A stretch of 64,000 bases of DNA from an uncultured Candidatus Binatia bacterium (lineage in GTDB: Bacteria > Desulfobacterota > Binatia > UBA9968 > CAXXLF01). The position numbers and the translations under genes are program-made. Within the stretch, counting starts at the first letter, position 1. Each line of letters starts with the position of its first letter. A model generated the notes under the pieces. That model had not been told where the DNA came from and did no database searches. It worked only from the letters and a program-made list of their open reading frames with translations. The DNA lies in assembly GCA_965218425.1 (NCBI GenBank), contig OZ244621.1:3168001-3232000 (forward strand). The letters run 5' to 3'. Of this stretch, positions 14,368 to 20,252 are shown piece by piece.

Positions 14368-14949
14368 TTTCGTTAACCGTTATTGGTTGTTCGTGAATCG
14401 GAGTTGAAACGAAAGCAATTAAGCGAGAAGCGATTGCTTAAATAGACAAATGAGCGAATAAACGAAAAAGTGAATGGACGAGTCAAGCGGGCCACGCGGT
14501 ATAGCAGCGTTTGAAGATTTGGATGTTTGGAAATTTTCGGTTGAGATACGACAGGACATTTCCCGTCTCATTAAATCCTTTCCCAGTGAGGAGAAATCCT
14601 ACCTTGCCGATCAGATGATCCGTGCGTCCCGTTCAGTGACCGCCAATATCGCTGAAAGTTTTGGTGGATTTCACGTTCAAGAAAGCGTTCGGTTTTGTCG
14701 CCAGGCAAGAGGGTCCCGTTGCGAGTTGATCGATCCTCTGCATGTCGCGATGGAGGAGGGCTATTTATCAAAGGATAAATTTGAAAAGCTGGGGGCGGAT
14801 GTGTTAAGGGCCGCAAAAATCTTGAAGGGCTTTATCAGATACCTGTCCAACAATAAGCAAAAGCAACTTGACGAGTAACTATTGCTCGAACTATAGATTC
14901 AACAATTAGAGGAATGCCCGAATAACGAATTACGAATATACGAGTAACC
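14368..14949. repeat. Short-period repeat arms flanking the four-helix-bundle gene
   Basis: Left arm TTCGTTAACCGTTATTGGTTGTTCGTGAATCG; right arm GAATAAC-GAATTAC-GAATATAC-GAGTAAC just before argJ. Confidence 0.7.
14474..14878 (+). CDS. Four helix bundle protein (23S rRNA-IVP / TIGR02436-like)
   Basis: FEDLDVW, FPSEEK, DQMIRASRSVTANIAE and ARGS..E...EGYL. Confidence 0.9.
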   Translation: MDESSGPRGIAAFEDLDVWKFSVEIRQDISRLIKSFPSEEKSYLADQMIRASRSVTANIAESFGGFHVQESVRFCRQARGSRCELIDPLHVAMEEGYLSKDKFEKLGADVLRAAKILKGFIRYLSNNKQKQLDE

Positions 14950-17680: not shown

Positions 17681-18457
17681 TTATTTCTTTTCTGACGCCG
17701 ATAACCCGTCGATTGCCTGCTTGAACTGGGGATAGGGTTGAGCGCCTCTTAGCATTTTAACGGCCTTTACCTTTGAAGGGTCTGACTCGGTATATCCCAA
17801 TAAAAATGTCGGCGTGCCCCTAATCCCTGCGTTTACCGCCGCTGCGATGTCTTTACGGATTTCCTTCACGTACTTTCCTCTATCCAGACAACCCTCAAAT
17901 GCCGAAAGGTTTAGGCCAATAGATTTCGCGTAGGCGGAAAGGTCCTCTCGGCGCATTTTTCTCTGGTTGGCAAAGAGTTTATTATGCATTTCCCAGTATT
18001 TCCCCTGGTCTCCGGCACAGTTGGCCGCCTCATGGGCTTTAAAGGCCTGTTTGTGGATGGATTCCAGGGGGAGGTCGGCAAAGACGTATTTAAGCTTGCC
18101 TGTCTTAATGTAATCCCGTTCGATCTGGGGCAACGTCACACGGGCGTGCCGGGCGCAGTAGGGTCACTGATAATCGGAGAAGTCGATGAGGGTCAGCTTG
18201 GCGTTCAATTCTCCCTTATACGGATCATTGCCGACGTCGACAACCGTGGGTTGAAAGGCGCCGGAGGTTCGCCGCCCGCCCCTCATGGCCTTTTTGAGAG
18301 TCTCGAGTTCCCTCTGAAGATTCTCCTGGTTCTTTTTAATGCTTTCGAGCTCTTTTCTGATGGCTTCCAGGTCGGTCTGGGATTGAGTCACTGCGATCTG
18401 GGAACCGAAAAGGAGCAAACCCACTGCCAAAAACAAAGCCAGGCTGTTTTTAATCAT
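17681..18457 (-). CDS. DsbA/thioredoxin-fold oxidoreductase, probable selenoprotein (UPYC; in-frame TGA at 18166-18164)
   Basis: The two track ORFs (18164..18457 and 17681..18139) are in frame and join as LIDFSDYQ-TGA-PYCARH. A signal peptide and the cis-Pro GTPTF are present. Confidence 0.88.
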
Positions 18458-18510: not shown

Positions 18511-19968
18511 TTAGAGAGACGGCTTTTTCTTGTGCCAGTCCGTGGCTTGCTCGTAGGCGTAGGCGACACGTAGTACTGTGGCCTCGTCCAGAGGTTTCCC
18601 GATGATTTGCAGTCCGATGGGGAGTCCTTTTGAGTCGAAACCGCAAGGCATGGAAAGGCCTGGAAGCCCTGCCAGGTTCAGCGAGTTGGTGAAGATATCC
18701 GATAGATACATCTGGAGCGGATCTTCGGTTTTCTCGCCAATTTTGAATGCAGTGGTTGGGGCGGTGGGGGCAACGATTACGTCACATGTTTTAAAGGCTT
18801 CGTCGAAGTCGTTCTTGATTAGCCGTCTAACTTTCTGCGCCTTCAGATAATAGGCGTCGTAGTAGCCGGCGGACAGGGAATAGGTTCCGAGCATGATCCG
18901 CCTCTTCACCTCTGGTCCGAAGCCGATTTCCCTGCTCTTAAAGTAGGTCTCGGTGAGGTTCTTTGCCTGCTGGCGAAAGCCGTATTTCATCCCATCGTAT
19001 CGCGCAAGGTTTGAGCTCGCTTCTGCTGTGGCAATGAGATAATAAACGGCTACAGCGTATTCTGTGTGGGGCAACGACACCTCCACCGTCTCAACACCGA
19101 TCTTCTCCATTACGCGGATAGCGTCCCTTACCGCCTTTTCAACCTCCGGCTGGGTTCCAGAGATGAAGTACTCCTTGGGGATCCCCACCTTTAATCCCTT
19201 CGCTTTCTTTTTTAGAGCCGACGAGTAGGACGGGACAGGGGAGTCCAGGGAGGTGGAGTCCGAAAGGTCGTAGCCCGCAATGGCCTCCAACATCAATGCG
19301 CAGTCGGTTACATCTTTGGTCAGAGGTCCCACTTGATCCAGAGACGAGGCAAAGGCGATAACGCCAAAGCGGCTCACCCGCCCATAGGTGGGCTTGAGCC
19401 CCACAATACCGCAGCAGGCCGCCGGCTGGCGGATGGACCCGCCGGTGTCGGTGCCCAGGGCCGCGATGCACTCGTCGGCTGCCACCGCAGCCGCCGATCC
19501 ACCGGAGGAGCCACCTGGCACGCAGTCCAGATTCCAAGGATTTCGTGTGATTGCGTAGGCCGAATTTTCGTTGGATGAGCCCATGGCGAACTCATCCATA
19601 TTGGTTTTCCCTAGAGTCACAGTCCCGGCCTCTTGCATTTTTCTAACCACAGTCCCGTCGTAAGGCGGAACAAAGTTACTCAGGATCTTCGACGCGCAGG
19701 TGGTGAGAACCCCTTTAGTCAGGAAGATGTCCTTGATGGCGACAGGGATGCCTAACAAGGGCGAATGGGAATCCTTGCGCCTCAGTTGCTTGTCGGCTTT
19801 CTTTGCCTCTTCCAGGGCCCTCTCCCCACAGAGGGTTATATAGGAATGGACTTTTTCGTCGACGCGGGCGATTCTTTCTAAGGTGGATTCCGTTAACTCC
19901 ACCGAAGAGACTTCTTTCTTCTTAAGCTTTTCTTGCAGTTCGTGGATGGTGAGGGAATGAAGATTCAT
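18511..19968 (-). CDS. gatA: Asp/Glu-tRNA amidotransferase subunit A
   Basis: [33 protein letters not shown] and SAGYYDAYY. Confidence 0.98.
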
Positions 19969-20252
19969 TCAATGATCTTGGGAACCTTGAAAAAGTTTTC
20001 TTCTCGCTCGGGAGCATTGGATAAAAGGGGATCGACGGCCGGTTTGTTGGTGACTCGATCGTCACGAAAGGCGTTGACGATATCTCCCACATGGGCGAGA
20101 GGCTCCACTTGATCCGTGTCCAACTGGTTTAACTTCTCGATGTAATGAAGGACATTATCCAGCTGCCGGGCCAACAGTCCTTCTTCTTCCTCTGTGAGTT
20201 CCATCCGCGCCAGGGTTGCCACATTCTTCACGTCTTCCCGTGTGAGACTCAT
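19965..20252 (-). CDS. gatC: Asp/Glu-tRNA amidotransferase subunit C
   Basis: [28 protein letters not shown]; overlaps the gatA start. Confidence 0.95.

Follow-up and report, generated by a model that had tools for sequence, protein, structure and literature searches.

The window analysed here is a 64,000-nucleotide stretch from the genome of an uncultured Candidatus Binatia bacterium (G000). Between gatA and gatB, it contains a single frame of 259 codons whose only stops are a TGA at codon 98 (18166-18164) and the terminal TAA (Table 1). An earlier note had joined two ORFs (18164-18457 and 17681-18139) into this frame as FSDYQ-TGA-PYC, assigned the TGA to the first Cys position of the thioredoxin motif and described both halves as otherwise intact. 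These statements held: no other internal stop was found, alignment with PDB sequences of solved DsbA-type proteins put the TGA opposite the first Cys of their CxxC motif, and the hydrophobic leader, the heptad helix and the GTP motif are all present.

Table 1. Features of the selenoprotein locus (positions in the window).
Feature	Position	Strand	Evidence
gatB, GTG start 4 nt past the selenoprotein TAA	16234..17676	-	TIGR00133, 596 bits vs 315
Complete selenoprotein gene of the Thioredoxin_4/DsbA fold, 258 aa, residue 98 being U	17681..18457	-	PF13462, 107.8 bits vs cut-off 23.2, residues 76-234
G-T-P cis-proline loop, residues 214-216	17810..17818	-	T and P in 111/111, G in 105/111 homologs
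C147 and C190, predicted second (structural) disulfide, helical insert	17888..18019	-	Invariant, 111/111
Candidate SECIS hairpin in conserved register, loop CGUGU (18142-18138) 21 nt past the UGA	18129..18150	-	Alignment of relatives
Active-site motif U-P-Y-C	18155..18166	-	Column Cys in 110/111 full-length homologs
In-frame TGA, predicted selenocysteine 98	18164..18166	-	TGA column conserved in relatives
Predicted oligomerisation stalk, coiled-coil helix with heptads (residues 29-59)	18281..18373	-	Heptads conserved among homologs
Residues 1-24, predicted to be a cleavable signal peptide without Cys, cut likely at A-V-T/Q	18386..18457	-	Sequence and hydropathy
gatA, upstream neighbour, 53 nt gap	18511..19968	-	TIGR00132, 657 bits vs 481
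gatC, overlaps the gatA start	19965..20252	-	TIGR00135, 94.9 bits vs 47.1

The read-through product consists of a hydrophobic leader, a heptad helix, a linker and a Thioredoxin_4 domain, in that order. The best 15-residue hydropathy of the leader is 2.25, starting at residue 5, and orthologs have similar leaders. Since no Cys precedes residue 98, the leader is not of the lipoprotein type, and a lipobox pattern was found in 1 of 111 homologs. In these near-full-length homologs, a set in which the length window and the ranking of the search favour coil-bearing rows, heptad positions 30, 33, 37, 40, 47, 51, 54, 57 and 58 are hydrophobic in 95-100% and Q44 is present in 107. C147 and C190 align at or beside two Cys of Wolbachia alpha-DsbA1. 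The AlphaFold model has a pLDDT of 86.4 overall and of 94-98 over residues 71-250, with a weakly modelled leader and coil; the heptad segment is modelled as a helix at a pLDDT of about 55-71. In protein databases, the gene and at least eight close clusters are present only as C-terminal halves of 152-161 aa without the active site. The gene is real and intact, and public gene calls have mis-split it at the TGA. Reading it through thus fixes a systematic annotation error, by which the subfamily is stored as C-terminal halves devoid of their active site.

The genome, which is 97% complete, encodes the machinery for selenocysteine (Sec) that the earlier note had proposed to look for. selA, selB and selD score above curated cut-offs and are clustered with a 95-nt tRNA-Sec gene (76.5 bits vs a cut-off of 47), and selD itself has an in-frame TGA. 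One selB was found above cut-off, and tRNA-Sec is the only one of 49 tRNAs with a UCA anticodon. Contigs of four runs from three studies cover the TGA with zero differing letters, so neither TGC nor TGT occurs at this site among them; these are contigs rather than raw reads, and one run is possibly the source of the assembly. Furthermore, comparison with the same-genus genome G001 gives a dN/dS of 0.10 before and 0.071 after the TGA, and comparison with G002, which is near saturation, gives 0.067 before and 0.098 after it. Comparisons of G003 with this genome and with G002 were left out as saturated (pS above 0.75). Both halves of the gene are under purifying selection, and the elevated dN/dS downstream of the TGA that would have spoken against recoding was not observed (0.07-0.10).

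In a set of 40 relatives, TGA occupies the same column in the best homologs, those of G001 (88%), G002 (61%) and G003 (58%), so that four of the five genomes of the family have TGA there. G002 has two TGA copies, and the remaining 164 alignment rows have TGC or TGT. A search of 251 genomes of the class gave eight matches at 1e-45 and one further genome with TGA, G054. The column was thus found to hold TGA in G001-G003 and G054 and Cys in the others, the comparison by which the recoding had been proposed to be checked. At least 120 metagenomic stretches, retrieved with a pattern requiring TGA, gave at least 121 matches with TGA. In the first contig scan, one of six patterns contained Cys, so absent TGA rows weigh little there. 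selA and selB were not found in G005 and G021, both of which have Cys and no hairpin core. Conversely, Cys occurs together with selB in G031 and with selA in G242; possession of Sec machinery does not force Sec at this column.

A quick version of the tree was built from Sec rows with scores of at least 300, the first 60 of the full-length proteins in the database and 14 loci, giving 49 Sec and 66 Cys rows. On this tree the Sec/Cys label changes eight times, at least three of these changes being forced by well-supported branches. Judged from these sequences, the subfamily is widespread and has undergone several Sec/Cys switches. Sec and Cys sister copies provide natural pairs in which to ask what selenium contributes to an enzyme outside the cytoplasm.

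Several individual copies stand out. The Cys copy of G242 (L289), whose SECIS is still perfect, groups as sister (SH-aLRT 97) to the TGA copy of G054 (L290); it likely represents a recent change from Sec to Cys, in a genome that still has selA. The second G002 copy (L058:6271-7119), on a long branch, combines the active-site TGA with another one within the coiled coil. No SECIS in the family is more stable than that of this copy (-11.9), which includes a two-sided change; this copy is probably decaying. Two metagenomic loci encode two catalytic domains each. Tandem active sites, both with TGA, are present in L205, and in L224 the downstream frame matches Thioredoxin_4 twice.

The hairpin GCAC[GCCC]GUGU had been put forward as a weak SECIS candidate. 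It is indeed present, with its loop 18 nt after the UGA, but it is not the hairpin in conserved register. Its stability is -2.2 kcal/mol, a value equalled or exceeded at 28% of 3000 random TGA sites of this genome and thus no better than chance, its stem is complete in 2 of the 23 closest Sec copies, and 237 of 500 shuffles reach its pairing. The alignment instead points to a different, overlapping hairpin as the true SECIS, with its loop at +21. Hairpins were scored by a published geometry (PMC13188914), and the loop CGUGU at +21 has the geometry that this source describes for bacterial SECIS elements. The sequence of this hairpin in the closest group is ACGUC[CGUGA]GACGU, and its loop lies 21 nt past the UGA. 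All 23 closest Sec copies, for which protein score was the sole selection criterion, keep its four-pair core intact, compared to 5 of 159 Cys copies. In a 33-row alignment, two pairs show two-sided changes, and none of 500 shuffles attains the pairing observed; 28 of these rows were picked by motif, which biases the alignment towards the conserved structure. More broadly, a hairpin of -3 kcal/mol or better was found in 109 of 117 distinct metagenomic TGA copies among the matches listed, in 23 of 159 Cys copies and at 21.5% of random TGA sites; the rows compared are related, so that these counts are not independent and the P value was given no weight.

The hairpin of this genome is an interrupted stem of seven pairs, in which a C18144·A18136 mismatch, linked to a Val-to-Ala codon change, breaks a U-A core pair in this genome only (1 of the 33 aligned rows), while the lower stem and the loop G are intact. 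Its stability is -4.6 to -5.7 kcal/mol, compared to -9.3 in G001. A fold of -7.7 kcal/mol was discarded, since it forced the C·A pair. The published bSECIS model uses an MFE of -7.5 kcal/mol or lower, which some genes fail (PMC13188914); the hairpin of this genome is weaker than this value, and the stretch folded here may differ from that of the published program. Given this weakness, it is the family rather than this hairpin alone that carries the case for Sec, and this genome may have less readthrough than its relatives. Taken together, the Sec machinery, the conservation of TGA at a Cys column, purifying selection on both halves and a SECIS that tracks the TGA across the family strongly support Sec recoding, as the earlier note had suggested, and the in-frame UGA is very likely decoded as selenocysteine.

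Outside this group, distant Sec subgroups (L169-L288) have different hairpin sequences at fixed spacings of about 17-19, 21-23, 28-29 and 34 nt, which suggests separate SECIS origins within one protein superfamily. A genome-wide scan for a TGA followed by a hairpin proved too noisy to serve as a selenoproteome, with 760 of 16313 sites passing.

Two other explanations of the internal TGA were considered. A special tRNA could decode the UGA as Cys (or Trp), or the TGA could be an assembly error or a plain nonsense mutation. The 164 rows with Cys in the TGA column would fit such a reading, and UGA-Cys systems are known in some bacteria. However, the sole UCA-anticodon tRNA here is the 95-nt tRNA-Sec, in a genome with selB above cut-off, and the TGA is common to independent genomes and matches the contigs of three studies. 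We therefore regard decoding as Cys, which the earlier note had entertained, or an error at this site, as highly improbable. Alternatively, the family might use Sec while the SECIS decays in this lineage, leaving a gene that is poorly read through or heading for loss. A C·A mismatch unique among 33 rows and the loss of stability relative to G001 would agree with decay, and the second G002 copy, with its additional TGA in the coil and its long branch, shows that copies can decay. Against this, dN/dS downstream of the TGA is 0.07 relative to G001, no further stop has appeared, and the lower stem and the loop G are intact. Furthermore, other probable selenoprotein genes of this genome have modest hairpins too (-4.2 to -7.5 in the same scan), and decay thus appears improbable compared to a functional selenoprotein gene.

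Selenoproteins with a UxxC motif have been catalogued since 2005 as 'DsbG-like' (COG1651, PF13462) and 'DsbA-like' (COG2761, PF01323) (PMC1088965, PMC1794560, PMC9312934, PMC13188914), and thioredoxin-fold selenoproteins are described as largely uncharacterised (PMC13188914). The assignment to a known UxxC kind made in the earlier note was correct, but the protein belongs with the PF13462 DsbG-like proteins rather than with DsbA-like form 1 of COG2761 (PMC1088965). It has the PF13462 domain and a UGA at the first position of the xxxC motif aligned to Cys, by which PMC9312934 defines DsbG-like selenoproteins. It shares with them a PF13462 score far above cut-off, UxxC, an in-gene SECIS and the Sec machinery, and differs in its soluble-type leader and conserved coiled coil, with no NCBIfam model of its own at cut-off. 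The best NCBIfam match (E 1.3e-37) is NF041057, the Rcas_1661 thioredoxin-like (seleno)lipoprotein, which has the same fold and UxxC; the best E among 112 aligned members is 8.7e-44. However, this match reaches 129.7 bits vs a cut-off of 190 and covers residues 79-250 only, and the leader of our protein has no Cys. The 'DsbA-like form 1' proteins (COG2761/FrnE, PF01323) share UxxC and the DsbA fold but form another subfamily. The coiled-coil, non-lipoprotein variant is new, the UxxC kind itself having been known since 2005, and represents an expected extension of that family. Our literature searches found no work joining selenocysteine, DsbA and ScsC, although supplements of selenoproteome surveys may list members, and nothing on selenocysteine in Binatia or on insertions within gatCAB.

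The best fold matches of the model are BdbD (Z 22.9, rmsd 2.0, 178 residues) and Wolbachia alpha-DsbA2 (Z 21.9), which are tied within 1, followed by Chlamydia DsbA, alpha-DsbA1 and TsdA, and by ScsC proteins (Z 19.7-20.6). The ScsC structure 5idr (Z 20.6, rmsd 3.8) aligns over 205 residues in model range 24-256, N-terminal helix included, and the chains that align into this helix are those of multi-domain ScsC. Class II DsbA proteins (B. subtilis BdbD, Wolbachia alpha-DsbA1, C. diphtheriae TsdA) are the most similar in sequence and fold of the catalytic domain, and alpha-DsbA1 likewise has a second Cys pair; they differ in being Cys-based, and their solved chains align from model residue 64-69 onwards and not over the coil. 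The trimeric PmScsC, CcScsC and alpha-DsbA2 (Z 19.7-21.9) share a leader, an N-terminal helix, a flexible linker, a DsbA-like domain, a CPYC-type motif (CcScsC) and GT-cisPro. They differ in having Cys in place of Sec, in sequence (20-24% identity) and in lacking the extra invariant Cys pair; in addition, no ScsB/DsbD alpha domain was found here.

DsbA classes are treated in PMC8405906. Isomerases share GTcP, CcScsC has CPYC, CXXC motifs overlap with those of oxidases, and the presence of at least 50 oligomerising N-terminal residues best separates the two types (PMC6450060); ScsC trimerises via N-terminal helices and depends on ScsB (PMC8900818). Our protein has UPYC and GTP, Z scores of about 20-22 to ScsC and alpha-DsbA2, and mature residues ~25-75 preceding the domain as a helix with conserved heptads. 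Because the xPYC motif, GT-cisPro and the extension of at least 50 residues match the marks of isomerases in PMC6450060, we lean slightly towards a predicted ScsC-like oligomeric disulfide isomerase/reductase over an oxidase. Several observations speak against an isomerase: the usual reducing partner, an ScsB/DsbD N-terminal domain, was not found, the protein is the only Thioredoxin_4 match in the genome by profile search, the top folds include monomeric enzymes of DsbA type, and a Cys homolog without the coil adjoins VKOR in G021. Whether it constitutes a Sec-type ScsC-like oligomeric isomerase, a kind of enzyme that we did not find in print, is a question on which we stand evenly balanced.

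As to redox partners, a search of the genome (97% complete) found CcdA (245 aa) and a VKOR with a fused C-terminal CPHC domain (L294:1423-2298, G000:C1 about 1807533), and did not find DsbB or the N-terminal domain of DsbD/ScsB (PF11412). Immediately before the VKOR-CPHC gene is one that, by eye, resembles SCO. In G021, a coil-less Cys homolog lies directly before a VKOR gene.

The gap between the selenoprotein stop and gatB is 4-7 nt in G000-G003, the four family genomes in which the region is assembled, and in the metagenomic contig L182, which groups with the family; the upstream junction varies, and in G004 gatB is cut by the end of the contig. The gene is absent at the 26 gatB loci of the two other families, where the end of gatA lies within ~130 nt of gatB in 10, further away in 2 and not within 1.5 kb in 14. 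The presence of the gene in relatives, which the earlier note had singled out for checking, is thus confirmed before gatB in the family but not beyond it. A gene for a TctA-type transporter in G002 and asnS in G003 are inserted between gatA and the selenoprotein gene, indicating that the gatA-gatB junction collects insertions. Furthermore, the genome encodes GlnRS and, by a 59.5% match to G003 asnS, AsnRS, which means that translation in this organism need not depend on gatCAB. The idea of an unusual site within an essential gatCAB unit is therefore weak: the position is limited to one family, gatA is close to gatB in only 10 of 26 other loci, and both synthetases are present. Co-transcription is likely, as predicted from gene spacing. 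A scan for promoters and terminators gave 3 and 4 sites vs 2.7 and 7.1 expected by chance, and a weak terminator-like hairpin between gatA and the selenoprotein gene (18492-18478) was not counted as evidence. A Pfam scan of 61 ORFs, drawn from 145 neighbour ORFs and four other loci, found no neighbour common across the subfamily. The position before gatB is likely incidental.

Two further features of these regions were noted. In G005 and G011 (L144, L145), an ORF of ~140 aa, HEPN-like by eye, replaces gatA directly before gatB. Within the window, a four-helix bundle protein (TIGR02436) is encoded at 14474-14878 between secA and the next gene, with no match there in G001 and G002.

Both the function and the position of the gene allow other readings. 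With the same Sec recoding and export, the protein could be a DsbA-type dithiol oxidase, or a bifunctional enzyme, re-oxidised by VKOR. Its closest folds include BdbD, Wolbachia alpha-DsbA1 and Chlamydia DsbA; moreover, it is the sole Thioredoxin_4 match of a genome in which VKOR is present and neither DsbB nor DsbD_N was found, and the G021 homolog adjoins VKOR. However, the VKOR of this genome already has a CPHC domain fused to it, and the G021 homolog lacks the coil found in all 111 near-full-length homologs (a search that favours such rows). Chemically, a selenolate as the attacking group should favour reduction. N-terminal oligomerisation also marks isomerases (PMC6450060), and an oxidase is, on these grounds, a serious but rather unlikely alternative.

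The position might also be functional, with translation of gatB coupled to ribosomes that read the UGA and selenium supply tuning GatCAB. The gap of 4-7 nt, which G000-G003 and L182 share despite a variable upstream junction, would agree with such coupling, as would the near-zero anti-SD pairing of gatB (-0.3 kcal/mol, in the weakest tenth of the genome). Yet gatB is equally without SD in many relatives lacking the gene, so that the SD analysis does not single out the family. gatB lies in the locus of only 1 of the 121 metagenomic Sec matches listed, many of these contigs being short. The genome encodes GlnRS and AsnRS, and there is no evident physiological link. We consider coupling quite improbable, and give equally little credence to a selenium-dependent switch in which GatB would be made only by ribosomes reading the UGA as Sec, with SECIS strength tuning its output.

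The account that best explains the locus as a whole, a predicted exported Sec enzyme of ScsC-like isomerase type at an incidental site before gatB, is one that we judge to have about an even chance of being right in full. SelB would almost certainly bind the CGUGU-loop hairpin and deliver Sec-tRNA. The C·A mismatch probably reduces readthrough, in which case some ribosomes would stop and release a 97-residue fragment made of leader and coil. The full product would very probably be exported, with cleavage of the leader near residue 24. From there, and with only slightly more confidence than doubt, we propose that the heptad helix would join two or three catalytic domains, that the selenolate of U98 would attack wrong or oxidised disulfides of envelope proteins and C101 would resolve the mixed bond, and that CcdA or another membrane carrier would re-reduce the enzyme, the VKOR-thioredoxin fusion acting in oxidation. 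The gene itself probably rides along in the gatC-gatA-gatB region as a family-level insertion that would have no functional link to its neighbours.

Other selenoprotein candidates were observed in the same genome. A DUF411 gene (PF04214, 81.9 bits) is present at G000:C1:4453868 (+) and C1:3295591 (-) (L298), the copies being identical over the printed stretches. Both are exported-looking; their TGA falls within a U-G-C-C motif and is followed at +21 by a hairpin of -6.1 kcal/mol. DUF411 (PF04214) is absent from the main text of the 2026 selenoproteome review and may represent an uncatalogued selenoprotein family. Two genes of the AhpC/TSA family also have a TGA and SECIS-like hairpins, one at C1:998663 (+) with UPYC (L295) and one at C1:3707210 (-) with UPFC and a signal-like leader (L296). 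Finally, a FrnE/DsbA form 1 gene at G000:C1:4075993 (-) (L297), which matches PF01323 with 116 bits vs 26.9 for PF13462, carries UPWC and an eight-pair hairpin at +20.
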